From a virus (lineage: Duplodnaviria > Caudoviricetes), in the IMG/VR virus record IMGVR_UViG_3300024232_000327, positions 1 through 56,607 of that record: 56,607 nt of DNA; one strand, 5' to 3'. The position numbers and the translations under genes were made by a program. How positions within the stretch are numbered: the first letter of the stretch is position 1; the number at the start of each line of letters is the position of its first letter. The notes under the pieces were generated by a model. That model saw only the letters and a list, made by a program, of their open reading frames with translations. It was not told the origin of the DNA and did no database searches. Shown in pieces: positions 9,669 through 46,548 of the stretch.

Positions 9669-9700
9669 GTTCCTACTTCTTCAACCCAAGGAGACACGAC

Positions 9701-10579: not shown

Positions 10580-10701
10580 ATCTCGGGGGAGGAGAGGTGA
10601 CGCAGCAGGTGCCCTGGACCGTCCTCGCTCGCGGTCGACTGTGTCGACTAGGCACCTCGCGAGCCGCCGAGGCGGGCTGCGATCATCTCTAATCAGAAGG
10701 A

Positions 10702-11526
10702 GTGACAGAAGTGGTCTCCAACGTCAAGGTTGAAGGTGCATCCCCTCGACCCCACCTGTCTGAGATCGAGGCGCAGCGGCGGTGTCTCCCTGCTGACGAC
10801 TCGTGCGGACCACGGACAGGTGACGACGGCAGAGCGCAAGCCGGTGCAGGGCCACTCTTGGTTCACTGGATGAGCATGATGAGCAGGCTCGCGTCGCTTC
10901 AGCGCTTCTCGATGGAGCGGCTGGCCAACCGGGAGTCAGTTCTCGAGCACCTGGGTCAGGTGGTCCTCACCTCTCTCATGCTCGCCAGCGAGATCCGCAA
11001 CCGCGACTCCAAGGTCAGGATCGACCTGTTCACCGTCATGGCTCGAGCCGCGGTCCACGACACCGAGGAGGTGATCACCGGAGACATCGCCAGGCCTACC
11101 AAATATGCCTCGCGGGAGACCCAGGAGATGTTTCGCAAGCTGAGCGCGAGCGCCGTCGAGGACATCGCGAGCGAGCTCTCGAGCCGCGCCGACCTCCCTG
11201 GGTTCGCCAGCGTGATGCGGGCCAATCATCGCAACGCCAAGGGCGCTGGCATCGAGGGGTGCGTCGTGGCCCTGGCCGACATCCTGGCGGTGGTGACGAA
11301 GGTGTGGGAGGAGGTGATCCTCCGCAACAGCGGCGCGATGATCCGTCAGGCCCATACGGCACGAAAGCAGCTGGTCGCGTACCAGAAGCGGATCAACGAC
11401 GAGGTCGACCGTGACTCACCGACCCACGCGTTCCTCAGCAGAGTCGTCGTCGAGGCGCTGCTGATAGCCGACGAGGCGATCTGTCGTGACTCCCGGTGGC
11501 TCGGGACCAAGGTGGAGACCTACTGA
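10702..11526 (+). CDS. HD-domain 5'-deoxynucleotidase/dNTPase (YfbR/DatZ-like); true start may be about 10870
   Basis: RESVLEH...VHDTEEVITGDIARPTK...ALAD. Confidence 0.85.
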   Translation: MTEVVSNVKVEGASPRPHLSEIEAQRRCLPADDSCGPRTGDDGRAQAGAGPLLVHWMSMMSRLASLQRFSMERLANRESVLEHLGQVVLTSLMLASEIRNRDSKVRIDLFTVMARAAVHDTEEVITGDIARPTKYASRETQEMFRKLSASAVEDIASELSSRADLPGFASVMRANHRNAKGAGIEGCVVALADILAVVTKVWEEVILRNSGAMIRQAHTARKQLVAYQKRINDEVDRDSPTHAFLSRVVVEALLIADEAICRDSRWLGTKVETY

Positions 11527-11766
11527 TCTTGAAATGGCTGGCGGTAAGGCGCGAGCTAGAACGAGGCCAGATCGACGCGGGATGTCAATTGTGTAAACCG
11601 CCCATCCCGCGACGAATTTAGGAAGAATGAGATGCGAGAAGGCGACGTACTCGACAGCCCGACCCTGTGTCACGAGATCGCGGAGGCAGCGCTGCGAGCC
11701 GCGGCTGGAGTCACTACTTCAGGGTCCGCTTCAGGTCATCTAGTGTAAACATTTTCTCAGAGGGTA

Positions 11767-11795
11767 TTTACAGCCGAAGGATTTGAAGATATATA
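11767..11795 (+). promoter_or_regulatory. phage promoter
   Basis: TTTACA-N17-TATATA. Confidence 0.55.
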
Positions 11796-11843
11796 CCACG
11801 CACCGCAGCGATGCGGATCAGCCGTGAGAGAGGAGACCCAGTC

Positions 11844-12272
11844 ATGGCAAGGCGTTCATCTTCACTTCAGTTCGAAGACCTGCCCGGTGGCACCAGCGGT
11901 GGACCTGGCAGCAAGCGCGACATGAGCAAGTCGCTGATGAGCTACCGGAAAGACGGCTACGCCGTGTTCTATCCGACGCAAGATCAGATCGACAAGCTCG
12001 GCAACTACGTCAAGGTCCAGCTCATGCGAGAGAGCGGTCAGGTCGTAGGCTCCCACCTGAAGCGCTCGAGTCGCGACGAGAGCGGCAGCATCGTGCTGCG
12101 TACCACCGTGGACACGGAGCGACCCAACTACCCCATCCCGATGAAGCGGGTCGGCCGCATCCGCATCGCCCAGGACGCGATGCGACGCGAGGAGGTGCAA
12201 ACCGAAGTCGACGCCGCCGGCCTCCGCGTCTGGTTCCCGGACGGGTGGACGGTGATGGAGACGGTCCGCTAG
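11844..12272 (+). CDS. hypothetical protein
   Basis: GGAGAC RBS before ATG 11844. Confidence 0.65.
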   Translation: MARRSSSLQFEDLPGGTSGGPGSKRDMSKSLMSYRKDGYAVFYPTQDQIDKLGNYVKVQLMRESGQVVGSHLKRSSRDESGSIVLRTTVDTERPNYPIPMKRVGRIRIAQDAMRREEVQTEVDAAGLRVWFPDGWTVMETVR

Positions 12273-12315
12273 AAGATCCGTAGCTCGAGGAGTAAATAGG
12301 AAGGAAAACTTTATA

Positions 12316-12344
12316 TTTACTCCTCGACCTTCATGTGGTATGCG
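12316..12344 (+). promoter_or_regulatory. phage promoter
   Basis: TTTACT-N17-TATGCG with GG, in an AT-rich intergenic stretch. Confidence 0.55.
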
Positions 12345-12432
12345 AAAACAATGGAAAAGCGATAATGTAAAAACTGCCGAGGAGGAAATTATCTATTTCC
12401 TTTTCGATCTTTGTGATTATTGAGAGGATCTC

Positions 12433-13620
12433 ATGACCAAGATCAAGGACGGCGGAGTTCAGGGCAGGATGCTGCCGTTCGTCGAGTCGCTGAAGGGCGG
12501 TCCCGGCTCCGAGATGAAGATCCACGTGATGAGCAGCGACGGCATGAGCCTTGCCGCCGAGGCGTGGCGGCTCTCTCGCGACGTGGACAAGCTGATCGAG
12601 TGGCAGGACATCTACACCGTCGACTCGCCCTGCTGCGAGATGCCGTCGGCGTTCTGCCACTTCCACAACTTCACCATCCTCGAGCGGGAGATCTTCGCCA
12701 GCTCGAGGACCCACGTGATGTGGGCCAGGACCTCGTTCGTAGACTCGCCGGAGAAGTACACCGTCCCTGCCGACCTGATCCAGTACGTCGACGTCACGGC
12801 GCACTACGAGATGAAGCGGAAGATGCAGAAGGGCAAGGAGTCGGGCCAGCACCAGGACGAGTGGAGGCGCTTCCTCCCCGTCATCGCGCTGACCTCGTTC
12901 ACGATGCGAGTCTCGTACCGCGACGCGATCAAGTATGCCAAGTACTTCGAGCACCTGGCTCACGAGTGTGACGAGTCCCTCCAGTCGCGATTCATCAGCA
13001 TCTACAGCGAGCTCAAGCGCCTCGCGACCCACTTCACCGGGTCGTACAAGATGACCGAGGCCGCGATGGATCTGATGAGCACGTCGAAGTTCCTCCACGA
13101 GGGACAAGTAACTCCGACTGTGACCAACCTCAACGGCGGGATGATCGACACCGGAGCCGTGATGGTGTCCACGTTCACCGTGCCGTTCTGGATCAGGGCC
13201 CACTTCGTACGTCACAGGCCGATCACCATCGCCGACGACCTGTTCCAGGTGCTCAAGCGACCCGACGTCGTCGACCTGATGATCAGCCACCAGGTGACCA
13301 TGCAGGTAGCTGCCAGCAGAGAGATCTGGCGCTCGCTCCTGGGCAAGCGGAGCTGCTGGCTGACCCAGTCGACGCTGAGCCGCGAGAGAGATCCGTGGCA
13401 GCAGATCCTGGATCAGTTCGGGAAGCACGTCCTGCCGTGCGCCGGCAGCGAGTGCCCCTACCACCGCGACGCTCGCAACCGCATCGAAGGCACCGACCCT
13501 GGGTGCCCGTGTCCGCGGTACCTCAAGCTGAACGGTATAGATGCAGCTCCGTTCCTCCCGCGGATCGACCAGGCTCTCAGGAGTCGTGCTGAGTACTGGC
13601 AAGATGAGGTGGTCAGGTGA
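12433..13620 (+). CDS. divergent tandem-domain FAD-dependent thymidylate synthase (ThyX)-like protein
   Basis: FWIRAHFVRHR (ThyX RHR motif) in the second half; QDEWRRFLP...TSFTMRVSYRD resembles ThyX E.AR..LP...T......N.R in the first half. Confidence 0.6.
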   Translation: MTKIKDGGVQGRMLPFVESLKGGPGSEMKIHVMSSDGMSLAAEAWRLSRDVDKLIEWQDIYTVDSPCCEMPSAFCHFHNFTILEREIFASSRTHVMWARTSFVDSPEKYTVPADLIQYVDVTAHYEMKRKMQKGKESGQHQDEWRRFLPVIALTSFTMRVSYRDAIKYAKYFEHLAHECDESLQSRFISIYSELKRLATHFTGSYKMTEAAMDLMSTSKFLHEGQVTPTVTNLNGGMIDTGAVMVSTFTVPFWIRAHFVRHRPITIADDLFQVLKRPDVVDLMISHQVTMQVAASREIWRSLLGKRSCWLTQSTLSRERDPWQQILDQFGKHVLPCAGSECPYHRDARNRIEGTDPGCPCPRYLKLNGIDAAPFLPRIDQALRSRAEYWQDEVVR

Positions 13621-13710
13621 TCCGCAACGTAGTATTCTTCACGATCTGCGCCATCTACGCCGTGGCCGTGATCGTGGCGTTCGTCCTCTGAGGCGTGAGA
13701 AGGAGACACG

Positions 13711-14283
13711 ATGTCGATCCTCAACGGCAACAGCAAGCGAAGTCAGAAGCCGCCGGCTCCGGTCCAGCTCCGTGAGGAGCCGCCCGAGCTGCCGCGGGCA
13801 CCCCAGCTGCCAGTGCGAGCTCCGCAGGACAGCCGCCGCCACGTCCTCGCCGAGCGAGCGGCTGAGGCCGCTCAGTACGTCGTCGACCTCGAGCACGAGC
13901 GAGACGTGCTGCGTCAGTCCCTCGGCGACGCCAAGAGCGAGATCCACTTCCTGCGGATGACCCTCGAGGCGGCGAGCATGGAGACCGCCAAGATGCGGGA
14001 GAGCCGTGACTACCTGGTGGGTCAGCTGGCAGGCCTGAGGAGCAGAGCCGACCTGCTGGCGAAGAACCTCCTCGACCTCGTCGACGACGCGCGGAAGACC
14101 CAGGTCGAGGCGCCGGTCAACGAGTTCGCTCCGCAGCCGAAGAGGGAGCTCGTGGACCTCGACCGCCTCGGAGAGGAGGTGATGGCCCAGACGGAGGCGA
14201 TCATCAGAGACGAGCCGCTGCCGTCGTTCCTCGACAAGCAAGAGTCGCACCCCATCGAGTCAGAAAGGGTGGACCGGACGTGA
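13711..14283 (+). CDS. coiled-coil hypothetical protein
   Basis: GGAGAC RBS; heptad-rich central region. Confidence 0.65.
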   Translation: MSILNGNSKRSQKPPAPVQLREEPPELPRAPQLPVRAPQDSRRHVLAERAAEAAQYVVDLEHERDVLRQSLGDAKSEIHFLRMTLEAASMETAKMRESRDYLVGQLAGLRSRADLLAKNLLDLVDDARKTQVEAPVNEFAPQPKRELVDLDRLGEEVMAQTEAIIRDEPLPSFLDKQESHPIESERVDRT

Positions 14284-14887
14284 GCATCTCCGTCATCCTC
14301 GCCGTGGTGGCCGTCGTCAACGCTGTCATAGCCTCCATCCTCGTCTGGGTCGTCATTCAGATCGTCGACCTAGACAGGAGAATCCGCAGGATGAGCCAGG
14401 ACTGCACCACGCGTCGCATCAACAGCTGGTGGGACAGATGATCGACGTCGAGATAGACGTAGTCGACCTCGACTACGTCGAGGTCTGCGGTCAGCGGATC
14501 AAGCGACCCTCCGGGGTGTCGCGGAGCGAGTGGCTCGAGTTCTGGAATGCCGCTAGGCTCTACACAGAGGGCTACTACTTCACAACGGAGTAACATGGCG
14601 ATGGACGAGAAGAGACGAGAAGCGATGAACTTCCTGACCCGTCTCGGGGCAGAGGGCCACGTGAGCTTCGAGCAGATAGCTCTCGCGATGAAGGGCAACA
14701 TGGTGTGGTGCCGGAACGGAGAGTTCGCGTCAGAAGCCACTCCATGCGACGAGGTGATCTGCCAGTTCAAGAAGAGTCAGCGGCGACTGGCTACTCCTGC
14801 TGAGCTCTGCAAGTGTCACACATTTCAGATAACTCTGTTCTCCTCGAGATGGGCTACTGCCCGTCACGTCTACCCGGAGGCTACGAG

Positions 14888-15364
14888 ATGAGGATCTACC
14901 TGGCAGCTCCGTTCTTCACCCCGTCCCAGCTCGAGCTGGTCAAATATGTCGAGGACACCCTCGTGTGGTTCAAGACTTCGTACCCGGAGAAGGAGATCCG
15001 CGTCTACTCTCCGCGTCTCGGGAACGGCGTCATCACCGAGATGACCAGGGAGGAGCGACTCAAGATGAGCCCCACGATCTTCAGGTCCAACGTCGACGAG
15101 ATCAAGAGGGCCAACCTGGTGTTCGCCGTCGTGGACGACCGCGACCCCGGGGTGATCTGGGAGATGGGATATGCCTACGGCATCGGCGTGCCGATCGTCA
15201 GCTTCACTGACAAGGGCTACGGCCTCAACGTCATGGTGAAGGAGTGCGTCACGGCCCACGTGAAGGGTCGCGAGGCGCTGAGCGAGTTCTTCACCACCTA
15301 CGTCGAGAACGGCCTCAGCGCCTGCCGCGCCAAGTTCTCCAACTTCGACCCGGCGGCGTCATGA
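14888..15364 (+). CDS. nucleoside 2-deoxyribosyltransferase / N-glycosidase family protein
   Basis: MRIYLAAPFF...YSP...IF..NVDEI....D.RDPGVIWEMGYAYG. Confidence 0.9.
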   Translation: MRIYLAAPFFTPSQLELVKYVEDTLVWFKTSYPEKEIRVYSPRLGNGVITEMTREERLKMSPTIFRSNVDEIKRANLVFAVVDDRDPGVIWEMGYAYGIGVPIVSFTDKGYGLNVMVKECVTAHVKGREALSEFFTTYVENGLSACRAKFSNFDPAAS

Positions 15365-15549
15365 CGGAGATCCTAGCCTCGATCGACGCCCCGCACTTCT
15401 TCGCGGGCGTCGTCCTGTGGGACGACAAGGTAGTCGAGGCTGCCGACGTCGTGAAGTACATGCGGAGGTGGTCGAGATCCAGGGTCCGCGACTACTGCAG
15501 TCGCAAGGGATGGAAGATCGTCGTGGTCTATCAGATGGAGCGATCTTGA
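15361..15549 (+). CDS. small hypothetical protein
   Basis: MTEILASIDAPHFFAG...; overlapping start/stop coupling. Confidence 0.55.
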   Translation: MTEILASIDAPHFFAGVVLWDDKVVEAADVVKYMRRWSRSRVRDYCSRKGWKIVVVYQMERS

Positions 15550-15998
15550 TGAAGGCGGTGATAGTCGGCCTCTTCAACCCGAAGAGTCAAGACCCTGCCT
15601 ACGCGATGGAGCCGTTCACGCCGAACGGGTCCGGCGAGCGTCTGTGGAAGATGCTCAGCGAGGTGGTACCTGTCACCAAGCAGGACTACGTCGGCCACTT
15701 CGAGATGATCAACGTGATCGACACCGACAAGGTCACGTGGGAAGACGTCGAGTACTTCGAGGCTCGAGCCATAGAGATAGAGAGGAGGGTCGAGTCACGA
15801 CCTGCCGCAGTCCTCGGCATCATGGCGTGGACCTCCCTCCGCGTCGAGAGAAGTCCGATCCGCAAGACCGACTGGTTCGGTCACTACAAGAACTGGTGGC
15901 TTCTCCCTCACCCCTCGGGCCTGTGCCGCGTGTACAACGACCCGGTGATGCGTCGCAGGGCCGGAGAGGCTCTCGCCAAGATCGGAGGTCTGCTGTGA
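15549..15998 (+). CDS. uracil-DNA glycosylase-like protein
   Basis: IVG..P, SGERL, N, AVLG and LLPHPSGLCR.YN motifs of the UDG superfamily. Confidence 0.65.
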   Translation: MKAVIVGLFNPKSQDPAYAMEPFTPNGSGERLWKMLSEVVPVTKQDYVGHFEMINVIDTDKVTWEDVEYFEARAIEIERRVESRPAAVLGIMAWTSLRVERSPIRKTDWFGHYKNWWLLPHPSGLCRVYNDPVMRRRAGEALAKIGGLL

Positions 15999-16411
15999 TC
16001 GTAGTCGTGGGGTTGGACAACACGCTGTGCCAGAGCAGGTGGCGCAGCTCGCTCATCGAGACCGAGGGGTGGGAGGCGTACCACGAGAAGCTGGTGGCAG
16101 ACGAGCCGAACCGGATCATGAAGCAGCTCGTGGCCAGTCTCAAGGCCGGCGACCACATCGTCGTAGCCTGCACGTCACGGCCAGACCGCTGGAGGATGGC
16201 CACCTACGGGTGGCTCATGCGGAAGGAGATCGTCGTCGACGAGCTGCTGATGCGGGCCGACAACGACTTTCGCCCTGCCTCCCAGGTGAAGATCGACCTG
16301 GTGGACAAGGCTGTCGGAATGAGTAAACTGGACCTCGTCATCGACGACCGCGACGACGTGCTCGCGGCGTTCCGTGCCAAGGAGATCTGCTGCCTTCAGT
16401 TCGCGAGATGA
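15995..16411 (+). CDS. HAD-superfamily (PNK 3'-phosphatase-like) protein
   Basis: GLDNTL, CTSRP, LLMR..ND.RP....K and IDDR motifs; first Asp of motif I is replaced by Gly. Confidence 0.75.
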   Translation: MIVVVGLDNTLCQSRWRSSLIETEGWEAYHEKLVADEPNRIMKQLVASLKAGDHIVVACTSRPDRWRMATYGWLMRKEIVVDELLMRADNDFRPASQVKIDLVDKAVGMSKLDLVIDDRDDVLAAFRAKEICCLQFAR

Positions 16412-16813
16412 CGTGTGGTGGTGACGTGTCAGGACATGAGCGCAGGCTGGGTCGTGCTGTGGATCATAGTCCTCGGATTGCTGGTGCTGTGTCCACTAGC
16501 CGCAGGTGTCGCAGTCATTCAGAGGAGAATCAGATGGACGAGGGCTACTCACGCTCCGTATCTTGCTTTGCGCTAGGGCCGATCGCCTGCTTCGCGTACC
16601 CGCTGTCGCTGCCGGCGGCACTATGGTTCTGGCTATGACCGCTATGACCGTCTATCTCATCATCACCGAAGACGTGAATCACGTCTGGTTCAGTGATCCT
16701 AGAGCGTTCAAGACCGAGCAGGATGCGCGGGATTGGTCAGCCAAGCAGCCGCCTTCACCTGACGGCTACACTAGGGTTCTCTACCGATGTCACGAAACGG
16801 AGACTCTAGAGTG

Positions 16814-16951
16814 ATGTGGGGCTGCATCGCAGAGTATCAGCGCGTGATCCTGACAGTCTGGTGGATCTTGCTGGGGCTGATCGCGCTGTCTGGTTCTGCG
16901 ATTGTCGTGGGTGCGGCCTTGTCTATCGTGTACAATTTTTGCTGCAATTGA
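16814..16951 (+). CDS. small membrane peptide (45 aa)
   Basis: read by hand: MWGCIAEYQRVILTVWWILLGLIAL...YNFCCN*. Confidence 0.5.
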   Translation: MWGCIAEYQRVILTVWWILLGLIALSGSAIVVGAALSIVYNFCCN

Positions 16952-16992
16952 GGAGCGTGGCTCGCCAGCAGGGAAAAGTAGAGGAGCGCTTA

Positions 16993-17181
16993 ATGTTAAT
17001 GGACGCCCGCGACAACCTCGACCGGATAATGCAATGTTCTCACTGTGGGTGGGCCGGTCGTCTCAGCCAATGCAAGCTAAAGGCGTCGCCGGTCTCTTGC
17101 CCGAGGTGCGATTGCGGCGATGTCGGCTATCTCATCCCGGATGGAGATTTCTTACTGCCGGGCAGGCATGCCGTGAATTGA
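16993..17181 (+). CDS. small Zn-ribbon protein
   Basis: CSHCGW...CPRC, following a GAGGAGC junction. Confidence 0.55.
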   Translation: MLMDARDNLDRIMQCSHCGWAGRLSQCKLKASPVSCPRCDCGDVGYLIPDGDFLLPGRHAVN

Positions 17182-17197
17182 GGAGCCGATTGTAGCT

Positions 17198-17515
17198 ATG
17201 GCCAGGCCGCTGCAGAAAACTTATGACCCGATAAATCCATTCGTCGTGGAGCGCCACGACCAGGAGGACGGCTCGATCACCTACGAGGTGTGGGACAGTC
17301 GGCCAGCCACCTACCGTCGGCTCTGCTCGATCAATGAATGGAATGACGGCGGTGATGAAGACGACGAGGAGCGTGAGCTAAGCACCGCAAAAGCGGACGC
17401 CGATATGATCTCAACAGCGTTAAACATGGTGTTCGGGTCGCGCGACTTCAAATCTGCAAAGCTGCGCACGATCAAAGGGGCCGTCATGACTGTTCAACAG
17501 GACAAGCAAAAATAG
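17198..17515 (+). CDS. hypothetical protein
   Basis: 105-aa ORF bounded by two junctions. Confidence 0.6.
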   Translation: MARPLQKTYDPINPFVVERHDQEDGSITYEVWDSRPATYRRLCSINEWNDGGDEDDEERELSTAKADADMISTALNMVFGSRDFKSAKLRTIKGAVMTVQQDKQK

Positions 17516-17521
17516 GAGCCT

Positions 17522-17622
17522 TTGACGGGGACGTGGAAAGTCAATCCACATTGCGGGCTGAGACATCGCCCGCGTCGGCCGGGTGGGTCTCGGCTTCTGG
17601 GGTAGCGCCCTAAACCCGTCAA
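17522..17622 (+). ncRNA. candidate structured RNA (closing stem plus four hairpins)
   Basis: TTGACGGG/CCCGTCAA closing stem; GTGGA/TCCAC, GCGGGC/GCCCGC, GCCGGG/CTCGGC and GGGG/CCCT hairpins. Confidence 0.5.
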
Positions 17623-17640
17623 GCACAAAAGGAGCAGATT

Positions 17641-17718
17641 TTGGAGTACATCCTAATCCTCATTCTAGTCGTCGGCGCAACAATGAACTGGCCGTGCGAT
17701 CCCGATCTGAGATGGTGA
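17641..17718 (+). CDS. 25-aa hydrophobic peptide
   Basis: TTG start after a junction: MEYILILILVVGATMNWPCDPDLRW*. Confidence 0.4.
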   Translation: MEYILILILVVGATMNWPCDPDLRW

Positions 17719-17736
17719 TAAAAAGAGGAGCGTCGA

Positions 17737-17892
17737 GTGAGCACCTTCGGACATGATGAGCCAGACCTTTGTGCCTGTGGGCAAAAAATTGATCACAAGA
17801 CCCCCTGCTTGTTGCGCCCCGGCCCCATCACGACGGAACAACTAGACGTGCTGCAATTTGGTCGTGTGCTACATCGCAGACCTGCAAAATAG
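17737..17892 (+). CDS. small hypothetical protein (51 aa)
   Basis: GTG after a junction: MSTFGHDEPDLCACG...RRPAK*, with the stop inside the next junction. Confidence 0.5.
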   Translation: MSTFGHDEPDLCACGQKIDHKTPCLLRPGPITTEQLDVLQFGRVLHRRPAK

Positions 17893-17901
17893 GAGCCGAT
17901 T

Positions 17902-18147
17902 GTGCGATTGGACGAATGGTCGGAATTGCTCGCGAGCCAGCTTGATAAGGAGCGCAAGGAACTTTCTGAGAATCCACGCCACCAGATCGACGAGGATTAC
18001 ATTCAGATGATGTATGCATTGCGTCATATCACGGACACCCGGTTTCGGTTAAGAGACGCTCCCGCCCAGGAGCTTTTGGAGGAATGCCAGAACACTGCAT
18101 ACAGATCGCTGTATGATCTCGGTAGATGGTGGCGAGAGGCCGAATAA
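17902..18147 (+). CDS. hypothetical protein
   Basis: 81-aa ORF following a junction. Confidence 0.55.
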   Translation: MRLDEWSELLASQLDKERKELSENPRHQIDEDYIQMMYALRHITDTRFRLRDAPAQELLEECQNTAYRSLYDLGRWWREAE

Positions 18148-18322
18148 AATGCGAGTCGTGGGTGGTCGTCGAGATGATGATGGCTCACCCCGAGATGACG
18201 CGCGAGGAAGCCAAGCGCATCTATGACAGCGTGAAATAAGGGAGCGTCGAATGGACGACCCGTTGAAGCATACGCCATCTTGTGAATTGTAGCCTGCGGG
18301 CTGTGCAATAAAGGAGCTGTTT

Positions 18323-18445
18323 GTGAAGAAGCCAAAGCCGGTCACTGAGTGGGAAATGGCGATCATAGCCGCCGGATATTTCTGGCGCGGCACGTCCATC
18401 ACGGATGGTGCTTTGGCAATTCTGCGGCAAGTGTATGGAAAATAG
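18323..18445 (+). CDS. small hypothetical protein (40 aa)
   Basis: MKKPKPVTEWEMAIIAAGYFW...VYGK*, between two junctions. Confidence 0.5.
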   Translation: MKKPKPVTEWEMAIIAAGYFWRGTSITDGALAILRQVYGK

Positions 18446-18454
18446 GAGCGTTTA

Positions 18455-18533
18455 GTCCGGGCATGATGCAGAGCGGTTTCGAGGGTGCACCCATTACCGC
18501 CGAATGCCGGTTTGATTCCGGCAACGGACGCCA
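18455..18533 (+). ncRNA. tRNA-like RNA (non-canonical D and anticodon arms)
   Basis: GTCCG/CGGAC acceptor-like stem followed by GCCA; T-arm GCCGG-TTTGATT-CCGGC; GCGGT/ACCGC stem; 79 nt. Confidence 0.55.
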
Positions 18534-18551
18534 ACACTAAAGGAGCCGATC

Positions 18552-18734
18552 TTGCTCACCGGCAAACAGCGTTACCGGCAAATCAAGGTGAAGGCCAAGA
18601 TCATCGCTGATCGCCAGCTTCGTGAATTCATGGCGGGCACGCTCGACATCCTTCCCTGCCGTGGCGACCTTGAGGACGAGCTTATATGCCGAGAGTTCGA
18701 TCGGATGGCCACCGAACTGCGATCTGCAAAATAG
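18552..18734 (+). CDS. small hypothetical protein
   Basis: 60-aa ORF ending SAK* within the CTGCAAAATAGGAGC junction. Confidence 0.55.
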   Translation: MLTGKQRYRQIKVKAKIIADRQLREFMAGTLDILPCRGDLEDELICREFDRMATELRSAK

Positions 18735-18857
18735 GAGCGTCGGGTGCGCAATGAAAATGGTCGGCGGTAACGCGCGAGCGGGAAAGAGAACCAGACGGGA
18801 CGCGGCGTCAATCTTTGGAACCGCCCGCCGCGTTCCAATGGACTAGAGGAGCATCGA

Positions 18858-18989
18858 GTGGACCCGGACGCGACGCACAAGTGGTGGATATGGCGCGGCA
18901 TGGAATGTTGCGAGGTCTGCGGCATCGTCCGACGCGCCGACCGGAAAAATAGTCCATGCAAAGGTCCGACACGGATCGTCTGCAAATAA
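18858..18989 (+). CDS. small Cys-rich protein (43 aa)
   Basis: MDPDATHKWWIWRGMECCEVCGIVRRAD..NSPCKG...CK*. Confidence 0.55.
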   Translation: MDPDATHKWWIWRGMECCEVCGIVRRADRKNSPCKGPTRIVCK

Positions 18990-19000
18990 GGAGCGTTTGA

Positions 19001-19156
19001 ATGAGCTTTGAGTCGGTCATCTTTAGCATCATGGGCGTCGGCGCGATCTTCTTGACAGTCGGCGCTGGCTTGGCATGGGGGTGGCCCGCGTCTCTAGCCG
19101 CCGTCGGCGCGATGCTAATGTTCGGGCCGTGGTTTCTCTTAATGATGAACAGTTGA
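19001..19156 (+). CDS. small two-TM membrane protein (51 aa)
   Basis: MSFESVIFSIMGVGAIFLTVGAGLAWGWPASLAAVGAMLMFGPWFLLMMNS*. Confidence 0.55.
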   Translation: MSFESVIFSIMGVGAIFLTVGAGLAWGWPASLAAVGAMLMFGPWFLLMMNS

Positions 19157-19166
19157 GGAGGCTTGG

Positions 19167-19352
19167 ATGGAGAACGGGCCACGCGAGGAGATGCTGCGGG
19201 ACTTCACGGCTTACTGCTTGGCCAATCCGAGCGAGCGGTTCTGGCAAGCTTTGCGGAACTGGTCGGGCCATAACTTTATTCTGGTTAGCCCGTCCAAAGA
19301 CGATCTGAAGCAATCGCGGGATACGTTCTACTGGCACGGCAAGGACAAATAA
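19167..19352 (+). CDS. small hypothetical protein
   Basis: GGAGG RBS; F.AYC.ANP.ERFWQALRNWS...DTFYW. Confidence 0.6.
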   Translation: MENGPREEMLRDFTAYCLANPSERFWQALRNWSGHNFILVSPSKDDLKQSRDTFYWHGKDK

Positions 19353-19363
19353 AGGAGCCCTTA

Positions 19364-19906
19364 TTGATCCTCACGGCGATAGACACCGAGACGACAGGAT
19401 TGATCGAGTCGCACCTGATGCGTCTCGAGTTCCAGCCGCACGTGATCCAGTTCTGCGCCACGGTGTTCGACCTCGACCGCGGAACGGTTCTCGAGAACGT
19501 GGACCTCCTGATCCAGCCACCTAAGCTGAGCCTGGTGACGGAGGACATCACCAAGATCACTCGCATCACCCAGGAGATGCTGAGCGACAAGCCGAAGTTC
19601 GCGGAGGTGTCGAGAGAGATCTTCCAGGTGATCTGCGATCACCCCGCTGTCGTGGCTCACAACCTGTCATACGACAAGGCGATGATCGACCTCGAGGCCA
19701 GGCGTCTCGACACCCAGGTGAGATGGCCGCTGCGGCAGATCTGCACCGTCGAGCAGTCGGTTCACCTCCTGGGTTACAACACCAGTCTCACGGACCTCCA
19801 CGACAAGCTGTTCGGCTTCAAGTTCGAGGGCGCCCACTCGGCACGTGCCGACGTCGACGCGCTGGTGAAGTGCGCGATAGAGATGCGAAGGAGGGACATG
19901 CTGTGA
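19364..19906 (+). CDS. DnaQ-like DEDDh 3'-5' exonuclease
   Basis: DTETTG, VAHNLSYD and HSARADV motifs. Confidence 0.9.
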   Translation: MILTAIDTETTGLIESHLMRLEFQPHVIQFCATVFDLDRGTVLENVDLLIQPPKLSLVTEDITKITRITQEMLSDKPKFAEVSREIFQVICDHPAVVAHNLSYDKAMIDLEARRLDTQVRWPLRQICTVEQSVHLLGYNTSLTDLHDKLFGFKFEGAHSARADVDALVKCAIEMRRRDML

Positions 19907-20431
19907 CTACGATCACGATTCGCAGACCTGAGACTGCGATCAGCTACTTCGAAGAGCTGTGGTGCGAACTGATAGGAGAGCCACGGGTGAAGTGCAGGCT
20001 CGGTCAGAGACAGATCACGTTCTGTTACATCACAGCTCAGCTGACCTTCGCAGATCACGTCAAGTTCTTCGACGAGCCGTCTGGAGGAAACCTTCTTCAA
20101 ACGGCCTTCTTCCAGGAATCTCTGAAGCTTCAGAGAGGCGACATGCTCATTCTCGAAGTCCACTGGGAGAACTGGTGATGGCCGCCTGCATCAAGTGCGG
20201 TAAAGATGCTCATGAAGGCTCGGGCTCCTGTCCGGTGTATCACGGCCGTCTTCACGACGGGTTCTGCCCTGCGTTCGCCGACGGCGAGACCTGCCTCGAG
20301 ACGTGTACGCGCTTTCACGACTGGTGGATCACGGAGTGCGACAGGAACGACGCGCTGATGAAGAAGCTCTGGAGAGTTCCCAAGTGGATCAGGAGATGGT
20401 ACTCCCTGAACGACTTCTGGGAGACCAAGAG

Positions 20432-23395
20432 ATGATCAGCACCGGCTACTCGTTCCGCCACGCCGTCGGCAGCCTCGCCGAGGTGATCAGTCGCATCAAG
20501 GAGATCGGATGGTCCGAGGCTCCGGTGGCAGATAGACTCTCCACGTTCTCGTTCGTCAAGTGGGACCGCATGACCAAGGAGGCGGGTCTCAGGCCGGTCT
20601 ACGGCGTGAGCCTAGGAGTCGTCCCGGAGCGCGGCGTGAAGAAGCCGATCGTGGACTGGTGGAAGTTCTTCGCCAAGGACTCTCTCGAGCCGCTTCACGA
20701 CCTGCTGTACCGCGCCACCAGTCGAGAAGGCGACAGCTGGGTCACCTACGAGGAGATGATGACGGGTGGCTTCGACGGTCTGATCGCGATCACCGGAAGT
20801 CGCGTTCTCCTCGACAACATATCAGTTCACGAGGACCTCTACGTCGCGATGAGTCCTGCCACTCCGAAGGGACTGTGGGTCGAGGCCAAGGACCGCGGTC
20901 ACAGATTTGTAGCGATCAGCGACAACTGCTATCCGCGCAGAGACGACGAGCGGATGTACCTCGCCGCCCTGGGATGGAGGTCCTCGACCCAGACCTACCC
21001 GCGTCACATCATGGGCGACGCTGAGCTGCGGGAGGCGATCTGGTACTGCGGCTACGAGGACTTCTCCGTGGCCGTGAAGAACCGTCAGAAGATCTTGACG
21101 AGATGCCGCGCCGAGATGAAGAAGGCAGCGCTCCTGAGGCCGCCCCAGGAGAAGACGCTCCGCGAGATGTGCGTGGAAGGAGCCAAGAGACGCGGCTGCG
21201 ACCTCAGCGATCCTGTCTACGCGGAGCGACTCGAGAAGGAGCTCAGGATCATCGACGAGAAGAACTTCGCCGACTACTTCTTCGTCGTGGCTGACATCTT
21301 GCAGTGGGCGCGCCAACACATGATCTGCGGTCCGGGGCGGGGCAGCTCCTCTGGGAGTCTAGTCTGCTGGCTCCTCGAGATCACGGCCGTCGACCCGATC
21401 AAGTTCGACCTCGTGTTCGAGCGATTCATCGACATCACCAGAGCTGACTACCCGGACATCGACGTGGACCTCAGTGACGAGCGACGCGAGCTGGTGTTCG
21501 GGTATCTCAGGGAGAAGTACGGTCGCGAAAAGGTAGCGCGTCTCGCGACCGTAATTCTCTTCCAATCTAAGAGTGCTCTCAACCAGATCGGAGCAGCGAT
21601 CGGCGTCCCGAAGTGGATGGTCGAGGAGACAGTGAACAGCGTCATCACCAGGAGCAAGGGCGACTCTCGCGCCGACTACAAGGTGATGGACACGTTCACC
21701 ATGACGTCGGCTGGCCAGAAGCTCGCCGCTGAGTACCCGGAGATCGCGATCGCGGGACGCATCGAGGGTCACCCCGTCACCAGCAGTCAGCACGCCGCCG
21801 GTGTCGTCCTGACCAACGAACCGGTGCGAAAGTACGTGGGAGTGAGAGGCCACGACGACCTCGCCATGGTGGACTGGCAGGACGCCAAGGACATCGACCT
21901 CATCAAGATCGACATCCTGGGTCTCACCCAGCTCTCCACGTTCGAGCGCTGCCTCGAGATGGTCGGCATCAGGGAGCCTGGCAAGTTCCTCGAGGAGCTA
22001 CCGCTCGACGACCCAGGGGCGCTAGACGTTCTCAACCAGCGCAAGATGAGCGGAGTGTTCCAGTTCCAAGGTGCTACCACCAAGCAGGTGGTGCATCAGC
22101 TCGACAGGATCACCGAGTTCGAGGACATCGTCTCGATCACCGCGCTGTGTCGCCCCGGTCCTCTCGGTTCTGGCGGCACCCAGAGCTGGGTCAACCGCAA
22201 GAACGGCGTGGAGAAAGTAGAAGTGTTCCACGAGGCGTTCCTGCCGTACCTCGAGAAGACCATGGGCGTGATGGTCTACCAGGAGCAGGTGATGCGGATC
22301 TGCCGCGAGATCGGCGGCATGAGCTGGGGCGACGTGACCGCGCTGCGGAAGGCGATGGGCAAGAGCCTCGGCATGGAGTACTTCGACTCGTACCGCGACA
22401 AGTACCTCCCCGGGGCGATCGCTAAGGGCGTGCCCGAAGAGGCAGCCATGAAGATGTGGGACGGCATGTGCTCGTTCGGCATGTACGGCTTCAACAGGGC
22501 GCACGCCGTCGCCTACGGGCTGCTGACCTACTGGTGCTGCTGGCTCAAGGCTCATCACCCCGTGGAGTTCGCCGCAGCTACGCTCGACGCCGAGCACGAA
22601 CCGAACAAGCAGGTGGAGATCCTCCGCGAGTTGAAGGGCGAAGGCGTAGACTACAGGGCTGTCGACCCAGAGGTGTCGACGGATCGCTGGACTGTCAAGA
22701 CAGAGGGCAACCGCAAGGTCCTGGTGGGTCCTCTCACTCTCGTCAAGGGGGTAGGACCGGCCATGATGCAGAAGGTCGTCGCAGCCAGGAGCGGCGGCGC
22801 TCCGCTGACAGAGAAGATGAAGGAGCGTCTCTCCAAGCTGACGACCAGCATCGACTCGTTGTACCCGGTGAGTGACGCGACGGCCAAGCTGTGGCCGAAG
22901 CTCCTCGAGGAGGGAAAGGTGACCAAGCCCCTGGAGGAGGCGATGAAGCACGTCGTCGACGTGAGCAAGGTCTACGACGAAAGACGCGGTCAGAGCGCGA
23001 TGGTGATCGGAGTCCTGGTGAGGAACCACCCCCTCAACGAGAACGAGCCGGGCCGCGTGGCACGACGCGGCTACGCGATCAAGAAGGGCCCGCTTCAGGC
23101 TCTGAACTTTCATCTTCGCGACGACACGGGGGAGATCTTCTGCAAGCTGAGTCGTCATCAGTACTCCAAGTTCGGCGAGCGCCTGATCGCAGGGCGACCC
23201 GGAAAGTCGCTGTTCGTGATCATGGGCAAGATACCACCAGACTTTCGCATGCTCTGGGTCAACGACGTGAAGTATCTCGGAGAGATAGACGGAGAGGAGA
23301 GACATCGTGGAGATGAAGACGAGTCGCGACCAGATCGAAGCGTCCATCAAGAACACCTTCGAGAAGATCCTCAAGCTGTACCGGTCCAAGGCTGA
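20432..23395 (+). CDS. dnaE: DNA polymerase III alpha subunit (family C)
   Basis: GRGSSSGSLV, PDIDVD, HAAGVV, KIDILGL, GVFQF, RPGP, YQEQVM and FNRAHAVAY; probable ATG at 20432. Confidence 0.95.
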   Translation: MISTGYSFRHAVGSLAEVISRIKEIGWSEAPVADRLSTFSFVKWDRMTKEAGLRPVYGVSLGVVPERGVKKPIVDWWKFFAKDSLEPLHDLLYRATSREGDSWVTYEEMMTGGFDGLIAITGSRVLLDNISVHEDLYVAMSPATPKGLWVEAKDRGHRFVAISDNCYPRRDDERMYLAALGWRSSTQTYPRHIMGDAELREAIWYCGYEDFSVAVKNRQKILTRCRAEMKKAALLRPPQEKTLREMCVEGAKRRGCDLSDPVYAERLEKELRIIDEKNFADYFFVVADILQWARQHMICGPGRGSSSGSLVCWLLEITAVDPIKFDLVFERFIDITRADYPDIDVDLSDERRELVFGYLREKYGREKVARLATVILFQSKSALNQIGAAIGVPKWMVEETVNSVITRSKGDSRADYKVMDTFTMTSAGQKLAAEYPEIAIAGRIEGHPVTSSQHAAGVVLTNEPVRKYVGVRGHDDLAMVDWQDAKDIDLIKIDILGLTQLSTFERCLEMVGIREPGKFLEELPLDDPGALDVLNQRKMSGVFQFQGATTKQVVHQLDRITEFEDIVSITALCRPGPLGSGGTQSWVNRKNGVEKVEVFHEAFLPYLEKTMGVMVYQEQVMRICREIGGMSWGDVTALRKAMGKSLGMEYFDSYRDKYLPGAIAKGVPEEAAMKMWDGMCSFGMYGFNRAHAVAYGLLTYWCCWLKAHHPVEFAAATLDAEHEPNKQVEILRELKGEGVDYRAVDPEVSTDRWTVKTEGNRKVLVGPLTLVKGVGPAMMQKVVAARSGGAPLTEKMKERLSKLTTSIDSLYPVSDATAKLWPKLLEEGKVTKPLEEAMKHVVDVSKVYDERRGQSAMVIGVLVRNHPLNENEPGRVARRGYAIKKGPLQALNFHLRDDTGEIFCKLSRHQYSKFGERLIAGRPGKSLFVIMGKIPPDFRMLWVNDVKYLGEIDGEERHRGDEDESRPDRSVHQEHLREDPQAVPVQG

Positions 23396-23685: not shown

Positions 23686-24285
23686 ATGCCTCGAGGACCC
23701 AGGTCGCGACGCACCGAAGAGATGGCCGCTGAGGCCCACTCTCTGATGGAGACGGGGATGGACGCCTACAAGGCGGCGGCCATCCTCAAGATCGGCAAGT
23801 CAACTTTCTATCGCTACGGCTTCAACGTGAAGAGCGACGGCACCAAGTGGAAGCCACAAGGACGGAGGCGTACTGTCGTGACAGACGAGATGCTGAAGAT
23901 GGCTAAGGAGCTGTTCGACTCCGGGATGTCGAAGGCGAAGGTGGCGGAAGAGATGAAGATTCCCGAGTGGTCGCTTCGCAACAAGCTCAAGCGAAAGAAC
24001 TTCTCGATCGCCTTCTGGGTCGACGCCTACAGGACGATGACCGCTGCTGAAGCGTCTCGAGCTACAGGCAAGACGGAGATCGCCGTCTACCGGCTGTGGA
24101 ATCGCCTCCGCGACAAGGGGTTCATCACCGACTGGAAGATCCCTCCTGACAGGCGCCAGCCGAAGCCCGTAGCGAAGAAGCGAAGATTCAAGCTCATCCC
24201 CTACGCAGGGAAGGAGACGCGACACGACCAGCTCATGTTCGCTCGCCGCGAGAAGCGTCACGACGGCAGAGGGTCGCGGTCATGA
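23686..24285 (+). CDS. multi-HTH DNA-binding protein
   Basis: three HTH-like segments (AAAILKIGKSTFYR; VAEEMKIPEWSLR; ASRATGKTEIAVYR). Confidence 0.65.
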   Translation: MPRGPRSRRTEEMAAEAHSLMETGMDAYKAAAILKIGKSTFYRYGFNVKSDGTKWKPQGRRRTVVTDEMLKMAKELFDSGMSKAKVAEEMKIPEWSLRNKLKRKNFSIAFWVDAYRTMTAAEASRATGKTEIAVYRLWNRLRDKGFITDWKIPPDRRQPKPVAKKRRFKLIPYAGKETRHDQLMFARREKRHDGRGSRS

Positions 24286-25451: not shown

Positions 25452-26480
25452 ATGCCGCGTCGTATGGGAGAGCTCCGTCGCCTTCTCGCCGAGTGGAACA
25501 GCCTGGTCCCGCTGGCCCAGGAGCGAGGCATCCGTCACGTGGGTACGATGCGGGTTCAGGCTCGCGAGTACTTCCACATGGACCGGGTCGTGGCCCGCCA
25601 GCGGGTCGCCGATCTCCGCGCCCAGGTGGCTCCGTTCTTCGCGCCGAACATCTCTGCCCCGGTCGAGCAGCAGGCGAGCGACACCTTCGGCGTCGAGCTC
25701 GAGTGCTACATGCCCCGCGGCACCACTCGCTCGCAGCTCGCGCAGCTCATCCGCGACGCCGGCGTCCTGTGCCAGGAGGAGCACTACAATCACTCCACGC
25801 GCACTCACTGGAAGGTCACGACGGACGGCTCGCTCGGCTACGATTACGGCGTCGAGATCGTGAGCCCACCTCTCTCCGGTGAAGCCGGCTTCGACGCTCT
25901 CCGCAAGGTGTGCCAGGTCTTAACCCGGCTCCGCTGCAAGGTGAACAAGAGCTGCGGCCTCCACGTCCACGTCGGCGCGCGCCACCGCAGCGTCGCGAAC
26001 CTCAAGAGCCTGGTCCGCGCCTACAAGCACTTTGAGCTCGTGATCGACTCGTTCCTCGCTCCCTCGCGTCGCGGCAACAGCAATCAATTCTGTCAGTCGT
26101 CACACATCTCGAACGAGACGAACTTCGACGTCGCGACGACGGTCCGCGAGGTGGGTCTCGCTTCCGGTCAGTACGGCTTCGACCACGCTCGCTCGTCAGG
26201 GCGCTATCGCAAGCTGAACCTGATGTCCTTCCCCGGGTACGGCACCGTCGAGTTCCGCCAGCACCAGGGCACGGTCGAGGGGCGGAAAGCAGAGATGTGG
26301 GTCAGGTTCTGCCTGCGGATGGTCGCATCTTCCTCGAGCATGACCCATCAGGAAGTTGTCATGCGGGATAACACCTTCGCAGGTTTCGCTTCGTTCCTGG
26401 GTCTGACCCAGGTGGAGCAAGACTACTTCAACGAGCGCCGCGAGGAGTTCGCGTCGCGAGAGCAGAGGAGAGCGGCATGA
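25452..26480 (+). CDS. putative amidoligase (COOH-NH2 ligase family)
   Basis: TFGVELEC, WKVTTDGS, EIVSPPL, SCGLHVHVG, RY.KLN and TVEFRQH. Confidence 0.85.
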   Translation: MPRRMGELRRLLAEWNSLVPLAQERGIRHVGTMRVQAREYFHMDRVVARQRVADLRAQVAPFFAPNISAPVEQQASDTFGVELECYMPRGTTRSQLAQLIRDAGVLCQEEHYNHSTRTHWKVTTDGSLGYDYGVEIVSPPLSGEAGFDALRKVCQVLTRLRCKVNKSCGLHVHVGARHRSVANLKSLVRAYKHFELVIDSFLAPSRRGNSNQFCQSSHISNETNFDVATTVREVGLASGQYGFDHARSSGRYRKLNLMSFPGYGTVEFRQHQGTVEGRKAEMWVRFCLRMVASSSSMTHQEVVMRDNTFAGFASFLGLTQVEQDYFNERREEFASREQRRAA

Positions 26481-26731
26481 GGTACAGAGCAGCAGACGGC
26501 ACGCAGTACGAAGCTCAGGACGCGAGCGACCTGGTTCATCAGATGCACGAGTCTAGCTTCGCCAGGCGCGACAGCGACTTCGAGTTCACCGCCGAGATGG
26601 CAGACCGTATGGAGAAGACCTACGGCGGCAAGGTCCGCAGCTTCCCCCTCGAGGACTTCGTCGACGACCTGATGTCGATCGGCTTCCTCAAGGAGGGCGG
26701 CGAGAGCAAAGTGGAGAAGCGACGTGGCTAA
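26477..26731 (+). CDS. hypothetical protein
   Basis: ATGA overlap with the amidoligase stop. Confidence 0.6.
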   Translation: MRYRAADGTQYEAQDASDLVHQMHESSFARRDSDFEFTAEMADRMEKTYGGKVRSFPLEDFVDDLMSIGFLKEGGESKVEKRRG

Positions 26732-27362: not shown

Positions 27363-27374
27363 AGGAGATCTGAC

Positions 27375-46330: not shown

Positions 46331-46548
46331 TCGGCGTTCCTCTGCTGATAGCACCTCTCGGTGCGGCTGAAGAGGACAGAGATCTTTCCCTTCTCGCAGT
46401 CGTAGTGACAGATGCTGGAGCTGGCTCCGCTTCTGCGCTCCTGACTCCGCAGATGGCATATACCTTGTGGCTTCACCTGGTCGGCGGTCATCACGGCGTA
46501 CGGATCTGACGCGTGACCGAGAACGAGAAAAACCACGACTAGGATCAT
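46327..46548 (-). CDS. small secreted Cys-containing protein
   Basis: hydrophobic N-terminus MILVVVFLVLG; four Cys. Confidence 0.45.
   Translation of the reverse strand: MILVVVFLVLGHASDPYAVMTADQVKPQGICHLRSQERRSGASSSICHYDCEKGKISVLFSRTERCYQQRNAE

Follow-up and report, generated by a model that had tools for sequence, protein, structure and literature searches.

The locus and its setting

Between the nucleotide-metabolism and replication genes of an uncultured soil phage lies an array of about 15 micro open reading frames (micro-ORFs), which follow one another on the + strand through a recurring junction that combines the stop codon of one ORF, a ribosome site and the start codon of the next. 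The phage is represented by the IMG/VR record IMGVR_UViG_3300024232_000327, which is identical to the whole stretch of DNA analysed here (the window; 56,607 bp, linear, GC content 59.5%) and has a completeness of 73% according to CheckV. In Pfam and PHROGs scans, the + strand from ∼4.9 to 35 kb was found to carry nucleotide-metabolism and replication genes, among them those of a PNKP-type HAD phosphatase (15995–16411), DNA polymerase III alpha (20384–23395) and an SNF2 helicase (33403–34884), while tail and head genes occupy the − strand from 36 to 56 kb. All copies of the junction lie between the nucleotide-metabolism and replication genes, that is, in the non-structural region. At the nucleotide level, neither the array nor 15.5 kb of backbone matched any cultured phage, and the nearest cultured relatives of the polymerase, at ∼34% identity, are those of Serratia, Erwinia, Burkholderia, Vibrio and Xanthomonas phages. 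A Gp38-type adhesin domain and the occurrence of these nearest cultured polymerases in proteobacterial phages point to a host that is probably Gram-negative.

Anatomy of the junction

Sixteen junctions in the same orientation (J1 to J16, from left to right) were identified between 16.9 and 19.4 kb, each spanning ∼20 nt and composed of an A-rich stop, GGAGC, a 5-nt spacer and an ATG, GTG or TTG start codon. The + strand of 16814–19363 contains 19 copies of GGAGC, a density of 7.45 per kb, whereas the remainder of the window has 2.35 per kb (Poisson P = 1.7e-5). Fifteen of these copies, together with one GGAGG variant (19157), are unit boundaries, and the other four (17248, 17368, 17949 and 18069) lie inside ORFs. 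The fifteen GGAGC junctions proposed in the initial annotation of this DNA were thus recovered, and the eight junction strings quoted there are all present at the positions given for them.

With GGAG as the reference point, alignment of the 16 junctions gives A(−6) A W A N A GGAG C N K N K N N T G. In 12 of them, the preceding ORF terminates within −1 to +1 nt of GGAG. The following start codon lies precisely 6 nt downstream of GGAG (5 nt downstream of GGAGC) in ten junctions and 6 nt downstream of GGAGC in one, and in the remaining five it is more distant or missing; the distance from a stop to the next start is 9–11 nt in seven of 15 gaps. An A occupies position −1 in all junctions except one. 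As a comparison set, the 44 of the 86 other genes of at least 50 aa that have GGAG 4–12 nt upstream were used. Position +4 is a C in 15/16 junctions and in 4/44 of these genes (Fisher P = 1e-9), position −6 is an A in 16/16 and 10/44, respectively (Fisher P = 4e-8), and position +8 is G or T in 16/16 and 19/44. The base following GGAG in the comparison set is most often A (23 genes, against four with C), in agreement with the earlier proposal that core genes use GGAGA(C). Indeed, backbone genes have a stereotyped ribosome site of their own, GGAGAC(AC), for example at 8320, 9701, 13711, 28970 and 30294, and the genome therefore holds two start-site 'dialects'.

A 21-column matrix built from the junctions yielded, at a threshold of 10 bits or more, 16 sites that are all within the array and none elsewhere on either strand of the 56.6 kb. 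All leave-one-out scores were at least 13 bits, and shuffled sequence gave 0.62 hits per strand at 12 bits. Independently, a repeat search recovered the junctions as direct-repeat families of 17–24 nt (D1–D5), with exact identity between copies extending over 13–17 nt. Two spacers, GTCGA and CGATT, recur and define the sub-families GGAGCGTCG[AG][AG]TG and GGAGCCGAT[TC][GT]TG. The string CTGCAAA is found at −10 to −4 in J7, J12 and J14, where it is read as GCA AAA TAG in two cases and as TGC AAA TAA in the third; because it is read in two frames, the conservation of the junction is at the level of nucleotides and not of protein. The A-rich requirement of the junction also accounts for the frequent C-terminal Lys or Asn of the units, and the ORF endings AK*, CK*, GK*, DK* and CN* listed in the initial annotation were all observed. 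The conserved C at +4, the A at −6 and the spacers have no pairing partner in the usual anti-Shine–Dalgarno sequence. The junction carries information beyond a stop codon plus a Shine–Dalgarno (SD) sequence, as had been supposed.

Such an asymmetric, intergenic motif with a single orientation could also represent a promoter for a phage RNA polymerase. Promoters of the T7/T3 type end in ...ACTAAAGGGAGA, and J11 reads ACACTAAAGGAGC, which we take to be a superficial resemblance to the 3′ end of a T3-type promoter. However, the motif carries almost no information upstream of −7, the part in which the specificity of such promoters resides; the window proteins include no recognized RNA polymerase, and the presence of an antiterminator-like protein points to the use of the host polymerase. 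This reading is highly improbable, and the T7-type promoter was rejected on the basis of the missing upstream information and the missing polymerase gene. Between 14 and 21 kb, two promoter-like sites (2.0 expected) and two terminator-like sites (3.6 expected) were detected, none of them at junctions. With all units on the + strand and no promoter or terminator signal above chance, the array fits a single polycistronic transcript.

Units of the array

The array is preceded by the left part of the insert (16412–16810), in which small + strand ORFs (e.g. 16635–16814) have a low GC content at third codon positions and the junction motif is absent. The last unit before the array (16811–16951) is a 46-aa hydrophobic ORF with a GGAGA-type ribosome site and a weak match to the two-transmembrane (2TM) family DUF5676 (E = 0.0022, below the Pfam cut-off). 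Its TGA stop abuts J1 (16944–16964; GGAGC at 16952–16956), which is followed by no start codon. J1 and J2 are separated by 26 nt (16957–16982) with no ORF between them, and this gap may be an 'empty' unit, the scar of one that was lost. J2 (GGAGC at 16983) introduces a 62-aa Cys-rich ORF (16993–17181; whole unit 16975–17181) with a CxxC...CxxC pattern and no Pfam or PHROG match, and J3 (GGAGC at 17182) a 105-aa acidic protein (17198–17515; unit 17174–17515), which has GTA in place of the usual GTG and, two codons downstream, an ATG in the same frame. In a variant contig from one of the soil sequencing runs considered below (X5), 28 nt are missing within 17477–17508, scattered over the Lys/Gln-rich 3′ end of this ORF. 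Since homologues of the protein align only to residues 1–81, its junction-side tail appears to be variable.

J4 (GGAGC at 17515; unit 17507–17630) precedes a structured element at 17520–17630, described below, and is followed by J5 (GGAGC at 17631) with a 25-aa hydrophobic micro-ORF (17641–17718; unit 17623–17718) and by J6 (GGAGCGTCGAGTG, GGAGC at 17727, repeat family D2) with a 51-aa ORF that ends in ..PAK* (17737–17892; unit 17719–17892). J7 (CTGCAAAATAGGAGC, GGAGC at 17892) introduces an 81-aa ORF (17902–18147; unit 17884–18147), beyond which lies the sole member of the array without an upstream junction, a micro-ORF of 21 aa from the ATG at 18174 (18174–18239) or of 37 aa from 18126. J8 (GGAGCGTCGAATG, GGGAGC at 18240; unit 18233–18312) is associated with a 13-codon micro-ORF (18251–18292) and a 20-nt spacer, and J9 (GGAGC at 18313; unit 18305–18445) with a 40-aa ORF ending in ..YGK* (18323–18445). 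The unit of J10 (GGAGC at 18445; 18437–18540) is doubtful, being either a 25-codon ORF (18463–18540) that starts 14 nt past GGAG or non-coding. J11 (GGAGC at 18542; unit 18534–18734) precedes a 60-aa ORF ending in ..SAK* (18552–18734).

A second doubtful unit follows J12 (CTGCAAAATAGGAGCGTCGGGTG, GGAGC at 18734; 18726–18846), where a start at the usual spacing gives eight codons and an out-of-frame ATG at 18751 gives 31 codons with a stop at the next junction; the stretch 18734–18846 may thus be a frameshifted, decaying unit. J13 (TAGAGGAGC, GGAGC at 18848; unit 18840–18989) introduces a 43-aa Cys-rich ORF (18858–18989) and J14 (CTGCAAATAAGGAGCGT, GGAGC at 18990; unit 18982–19156) a 51-aa hydrophobic ORF (19001–19156). 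The GGAGG variant J15 (19157; unit 19149–19352) is followed by a 61-aa ORF ending in ..KDK* (19167–19352). The right anchor of the array is J16 (AAATAAAGGAGC, GGAGC at 19354), which doubles as the ribosome site of a backbone gene encoding an RNase T-type exonuclease (19364–19906; 19346–19906 with the junction).

The ORFs of the array comprise 13–105 codons, with hydrophobic or Cys-rich products in several cases. As proposed initially, the units bear no relation to one another: an all-against-all blastp comparison returned a single match of 9–10 residues (KWW.W), and Pfam and PHROG scans of the units returned nothing beyond the sub-threshold 2TM match. Most units display the coding pattern GC3 > GC1 > GC2 (GC content at the third, first and second codon positions), which is absent from three ORFs with a late start or none (17533–17613, 18463–18540 and 18751–18846). 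The first of these lies within 17520–17630, a stretch with no start at the usual spacing and a codon-position GC that is not coding-like, which is predicted to fold with a minimum free energy of −53.7 kcal/mol (z = −4.41; none of 200 shuffled sequences folds as well) into a 9-bp closing stem (17521–17529 / 17615–17623) around three hairpins. It is probably a structured non-coding element, which could act as a small RNA, as an RNase III-type processing site or at the level of DNA. The folding of the other doubtful units is not exceptional, with z scores of −2.26 for that of J10 (6/200 shuffles), −0.23 for that of J12 and −0.31 for that of J8, and tRNA and Rfam scans gave no match, 17520–17630 included. 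The RNAs mentioned in the initial annotation are therefore borne out for this one element and not for the other doubtful units.

Two units have relatives in other phages. Homologues of the 105-aa protein, with 40–79% amino-acid identity, were found in four IMG/VR phages (loci L081–L084), where DNA similarity is restricted to the inside of the gene (17244–17410) and the junctions are of other types. The 61-aa protein has homologues with 53% identity at two further loci (L143 and L144), likewise with DNA similarity in the gene interior only and without the junction described here. Judged by these alignments, both proteins represent genuine phage families with a wide, scattered distribution. Two of the loci with a 105-aa homologue, likewise from soil phages, have repeated stop-plus-SD junctions of their own, CCATAGGAGA in four copies in L082 (4288–5843) and ATAGAGGAGAA in four copies in L084 (1261–6056), and lineage-specific junctions of this kind may be common. 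As the stereotyped junctions differ among L082, L084 and the backbone of the window, such dialects appear to be properties of lineages, and any junction-guided exchange would consequently work only between phages of one dialect. For the 81-aa unit (17902–18147), no IMG/VR relative was found.

A variable insert of foreign composition

The GC content of the array region is 0.566, compared with about 0.61, in line with the richness in AAA/TTT/AAT noted initially, and its GC3 is 0.68, compared with 0.82–0.89 in backbone genes. In the closest relative found (L004), the polymerase is 59% identical and the backbone is collinear, but only ∼350 bp, occupied by a single unrelated gene, separate the homologues of 15549–15998 and of the exonuclease gene, and none of the array units is present; in a more distant relative (L003), this position is taken by other genes. 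The block is therefore not collinear in relatives, as would be expected under the initial proposal. Comparison of gene order and base composition shows the array to be a variable insert of foreign composition, a hyperplastic region in the presumed early/replication operon. The exonuclease homologue of L004 (8880–8905) is likewise preceded by GGAGC-N5-GTG, which indicates that J16 is the native ribosome site of the backbone gene, and the array may have been anchored at this site as it grew.

These observations bear on the most serious alternative to a role of the junction in recombination, namely that the array is an ordinary operon imported from a phage lineage of lower GC content, in which AAATAGGAGC-N5 is the preferred ribosome site and serves translation only. 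The GC3 of the array matches that of the genes of L079 (0.65–0.71), a locus described in the following section, and differs from that of the window backbone, and the repeated junctions of L082 and L084 suggest that such dialects are shaped by translation. On the other hand, the near-invariant C at +4, the A at −6 and the recurring 5-nt spacers, none of which has a partner in the usual anti-SD sequence, and the CTGCAAA string read in two frames are not accounted for by a preferred ribosome site.

Sharing of a single unit with an unrelated phage

A search with a 30-base string spanning J14 led to two metagenome contigs, L079 and L080, which derive from one phage (99.9% identity in their overlap). 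The only sequence that they share with the window is 18844–18996, 153 nt with 94% identity and unrelated flanks. The similarity begins at TAGAGGAGC (J13) and ends at ..AAGGAGCGT (J14), so that the shared piece corresponds to exactly one unit, the 43-codon Cys-rich ORF, and both of its ends lie inside junctions. Three synonymous and three nonsynonymous differences separate the two copies of the ORF. The neighbouring genes in L079/L080 encode a PD-(D/E)XK nuclease, a VRR-NUC-like protein and an SNF2 helicase, and with the exception of the helicase (24% identity) their other proteins have no homologue in the window. The phage has an array of its own, with units of 20, 27, 43, 43 and 93 codons separated by the same type of junction, and the five matrix hits within 2.6 kb of L079 make it the densest of 141 loci (1.42 Mb) scanned with the matrix.

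Other searches gave a more restricted picture. No exact copy of the 30-mer of the J14 region was found in IMG/VR, and no IMG/VR relative of the 43-aa unit was detected with the alignment of the window and L079 copies as the query; a search of 5.8 billion proteins returned a single cluster, that of L080. The 15-mer CTGCAAAATAGGAGC occurs at 58 IMG/VR loci, none of which has an array or similarity to that of the window, and these are apparently chance occurrences or ordinary ribosome sites. In L079 (1749–2023), two adjacent 43-codon Cys-rich units share an N-terminal word, D.(T/E).KWW.W (E = 0.016–0.05, not significant), and could be very old tandem paralogues. Tandem duplication was considered as an origin of the units and rejected, the adjacent units of L079 having only the KWW.W word in common.

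Branch points in contigs from other soil runs

Contigs of four soil runs reproduce the order of the array, and one contig from run X2 extends over 15755–18996. A loose end was defined as the point at which a contig that tracks the window starts to diverge from it, and stretches without contig cover in runs X3–X5 (e.g. 17613–19020 in X5) were not counted as absence. Five distinct loose ends fall within the array, three of them in junction cores; a fourth precedes a core by ∼10 nt and the fifth is internal to a unit. The first, at 18996 in J14, was observed in both X2 and X3 and continues into the sequence of L079. The second, at 19160 in X3, is placed directly after the GGAG of J15 and continues with a canonical spacer and GTG, and the third, at 19358 in X5, directly follows the GGAGC of J16. 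At the fourth (17610, X5), the letters match again, by eye, past a 2-base gap to ∼17620; this point coincides with the end of the structured element and precedes J5 by 10 nt. The fifth (17994, X5) lies mid-unit. Junction cores make up 5.6% of the array, and the probability that at least three of five loose ends would be located there by chance is 0.0017.

The initial annotation had asked whether homology would break at junctions, and this is observed on both sides of the unit shared with L079/L080 and at three of the five branch points. Neither finding is readily explained by an imported operon serving translation only: the single-unit block ends within a shared 9–17 nt on each side in two otherwise unrelated phages, and the three branch points fall in a twentieth or so of the array. 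In that explanation, the end points would result from illegitimate recombination followed by selection, with only those recombinants that retain intact genes surviving. Joints of mosaic segments at gene boundaries are a general feature of phage genomes. We regard this alternative as a real possibility, although a doubtful one.

Absence of a recognizable recombinase

According to the initial annotation, the array was an integron-like system of cassette capture. The likeness lies in promoterless, unrelated small genes in the same orientation between recurring sites and in the mobility of a single unit. The array differs from an integron in the lack of IntI, of a folded site of the attC type and of an attI/Pc platform, and in the junction itself being the ribosome site. 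In line with the initial remark that the window holds no integrase, no integrase, serine recombinase, transposase or annealase was recognized in a PHROGs scan of 106 window proteins and a Pfam scan of 14 large ones, the window representing 73% of the genome. A weak match to a 'DNA invertase' at the level of the helix-turn-helix motif (23722–24285; E = 2e-4) contained no stretch that passed, and no recombinase gene was found in the 4 kb around the array of L079/L080. The junctions are short, asymmetric and found as direct repeats only, and none of the ten inverted pairs returned by the repeat search is located at a junction, so that no attC-like inverted repeat was detected there. Junction-to-junction deletions and circular excised units were also not found in the contigs of the four runs, assembled contigs being prone to drop rare variants.

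Without an integrase, an attC-like site or an excised form, 'integron-like' is not supported as a description of the mechanism. A site-specific system of this kind, with units excised as circles by a recombinase encoded elsewhere in the genome or by the host, would still agree with the promoterless, unrelated units in one orientation, with the repeated site and with the sharing of a single unit whose end points lie in that site, and the recombinase could lie outside the record, which is 73% complete. Nevertheless, the lack of a recombinase in the proteins scanned and around the L079/L080 array, the short asymmetric junction devoid of an attC-type hairpin and the lack of joints or circles make it very unlikely.

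Relation to known phage motifs

The junction resembles the start-associated sequence (SAS) motif of Cluster K mycobacteriophages, for which the available part of the original description gives the consensus 5′-GGGATAGGAGCCC and 11–19 copies located 3–7 bp before the start codons of non-structural genes only, often with the upstream stop codon included, and reports conservation beyond rRNA pairing (Pope et al., 2011; PMC3203893). An SAS-like motif is also described in Microbacterium Cluster EF phages (PMC7302621). In the accessible sections of a 2025 survey, the role of SAS is still called unverified, SAS is linked to translation and 'recombination' refers to engineering only (PMC12699233). As far as these partial sources go, the two motifs have in common that they are asymmetric, present in many copies with one orientation, located at the position of a ribosome site in front of unrelated families of non-structural genes, often inclusive of the upstream stop, and conserved even at positions without a pairing partner in 16S rRNA. 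The 8-nt core of SAS, ATAGGAGC, is also identical to the commonest form in the window array. Differences from the portions of those descriptions consulted are found in the flanks, which are A-rich on the 5′ side rather than GGG and have no CCC on the 3′ side, such that the consensus GGGATAGGAGCCC is not matched with up to two mismatches; in the packing of the copies into one 2.5-kb array of micro-ORFs, SAS being spread over a genome arm; in the host, which is probably Gram-negative and not an actinobacterium; and in the comparative evidence for exchange at the motif. Upstream 17-bp inverted repeats like those of ESAS were not found in the window. With only the core ATAGGAGC(C) in common and no ESAS, the junction is SAS-like but not a member of the Cluster K family.

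The comparison with SAS also raises the possibility that the main function of the junction is that of an operator, bound by a class-specific regulator (a small RNA or a protein of phage or host), with recombination being incidental. This would resemble the action of T4 RegA/RegB on early ribosome sites and is an open hypothesis for SAS as well. It is consistent with the limitation of the motif to one gene class and one strand and with its conservation beyond rRNA pairing; the same idea is put forward in the available part of the work on SAS (PMC3203893), whose role is given as unverified in that of the 2025 survey (PMC12699233). Nonetheless, no candidate regulator was identified and no ESAS-like inverted repeats were found upstream, and regulation alone does not explain the junction-bounded sharing of a unit by unrelated phages. 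We consider a primarily regulatory junction unlikely.

A second likeness is to the promoter-early stem-loop (PeSL) elements of T4-type phages, which, according to the parts of the reports available, lie on either side of ORFans in hyperplastic regions and bring about modular shuffling (Arbiol et al., 2010, PMC2839356; Comeau et al., 2014, PMC4122927). These elements, of ∼100 bp, consist of a σ70 promoter and a stem-loop terminator, and mini-circles have been demonstrated physically (PMC2839356). As in the PeSL system, to the extent covered by these sources, a conserved regulatory motif surrounds small ORFans between core genes, differences between phages end in the motif, and the model is one in which homologous recombination between motifs shuffles single genes together with their expression signals. 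By contrast with PeSL as so described, the junction is a translational unit of ∼20 nt (stop, ribosome site and start) with no promoter or terminator signal, and for the window array, represented by contigs only, no excised form has been seen.

The arrangement also recalls a third type of motif. Stoperators are 13-bp asymmetric motifs with one orientation that lie in short intergenic gaps, bind the phage repressor and act on transcription. The junction shares with them its shortness, its asymmetry, its repetition in one orientation and its location in short intergenic gaps, but it coincides with the ribosome site, and no repressor is known for the window array. Stoperators of Cluster A mycobacteriophages are mentioned in the available part of the Cluster K study (PMC3203893). 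No description of ribosome-site junctions acting as recombination linkers turned up in the literature searched, which did not extend to subscription journals.

Proposed mode of exchange

On balance, we favour the interpretation that the junction is an SAS-like translation junction that also serves as a homology linker for modular shuffling in the manner of PeSL. The array would be transcribed as one polycistronic mRNA, in which the stop–SD–start geometry would give each unit efficient, possibly coupled and uniform translation. As all units begin and end in the same 13–24 nt, these stretches would provide homology for recombination between junctions, either those of co-infecting phages or those within one genome, and general or phage-annealase homologous recombination, or template switching, could insert, delete or replace single units in register. 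A newcomer would be translated at once, in keeping with the initial suggestion that an inserted unit is immediately positioned for translation, each unit being apparently set up for this by the same geometry, and no dedicated recombinase would be needed. Homology-guided shuffling as in the PeSL model appears to fit the data better than site-specific cassette capture, and the idea of a crossover junction is supported by evidence from sequence comparison that is limited but pointed.

Several observations weigh against this interpretation. Only one exchange, that with L079/L080, is fully resolved, and the loose end at 18996 reflects the same event, its continuation being that of L079, and is not an independent case; the loose end at 17994 is in the middle of a unit. 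The homologues of the 105-aa and 61-aa proteins stand behind other ribosome sites, showing that gene and junction are not always transferred together. The exact identity between junctions, 13–17 nt, is low for efficient homologous recombination, and neither a recombinase nor an annealase was recognized in the window, with its 73% completeness. In addition, the intergenic space consists almost only of junction, so that 'at junctions' is inseparable from 'at gene boundaries kept by selection'. The lack of junction-to-junction deletions or circles in the four runs, within the limits of assembled contigs, points the same way and is also in favour of an imported operon.

In a more far-reaching version, the junction would be the recombination site of a dedicated, translation-ready cassette exchange among unrelated soil phages, an 'integron without attC', with a junction-specific annealase or recombinase, encoded outside the known 73% of the genome, excising and inserting single micro-genes or RNA units, and with the SAS motifs of actinobacteriophages acting as exchange linkers too. 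We hold this version to be improbable.

Many of the tiny accessory genes in the variable regions of phages are thought to be host-takeover or anti-defence factors, and the way in which they are acquired singly, with neighbouring genes left intact, is only partly understood. The array brings together two known phenomena, with an SAS-like start junction found at both ends of a single gene that appears to have moved between unrelated phages. If general, this would mean that a translation junction of ∼20 nt suffices as a movable linker, directing recombination to positions where it is harmless and in register and at the same time ensuring the expression of the newcomer. It would also provide a testable role for SAS-type motifs, and the combination of the junction matrix with a micro-ORF would be a simple rule for finding pools of exchangeable accessory genes in viromes.

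Other features of the genome

A cluster of nucleotide-modifying genes is found on the + strand at 9318–15998 and 25452–28120. Its members encode MazG-like, dNTP triphosphohydrolase-like and UDG-like proteins, a nucleoside 2-deoxyribosyltransferase, an amidoligase and two gamma-glutamyl cyclotransferase-like proteins, and the DNA of the phage may, to judge from this gene content, be hypermodified. Genes related to sugar metabolism, coding for a UDP-glucose dehydrogenase-like protein, a glycosyltransferase, a sialyltransferase-like protein and a methyltransferase, are located within or next to the virion module on the − strand (36285–37136 and 51865–56526). Two adjacent structural genes on the same strand (46548–47591 and 47588–48421) are preceded by a near-identical 22-nt sequence, cgcaggacttcttcccagg[gc]cc ATG, which suggests that they are tandem paralogues with conserved C-termini.

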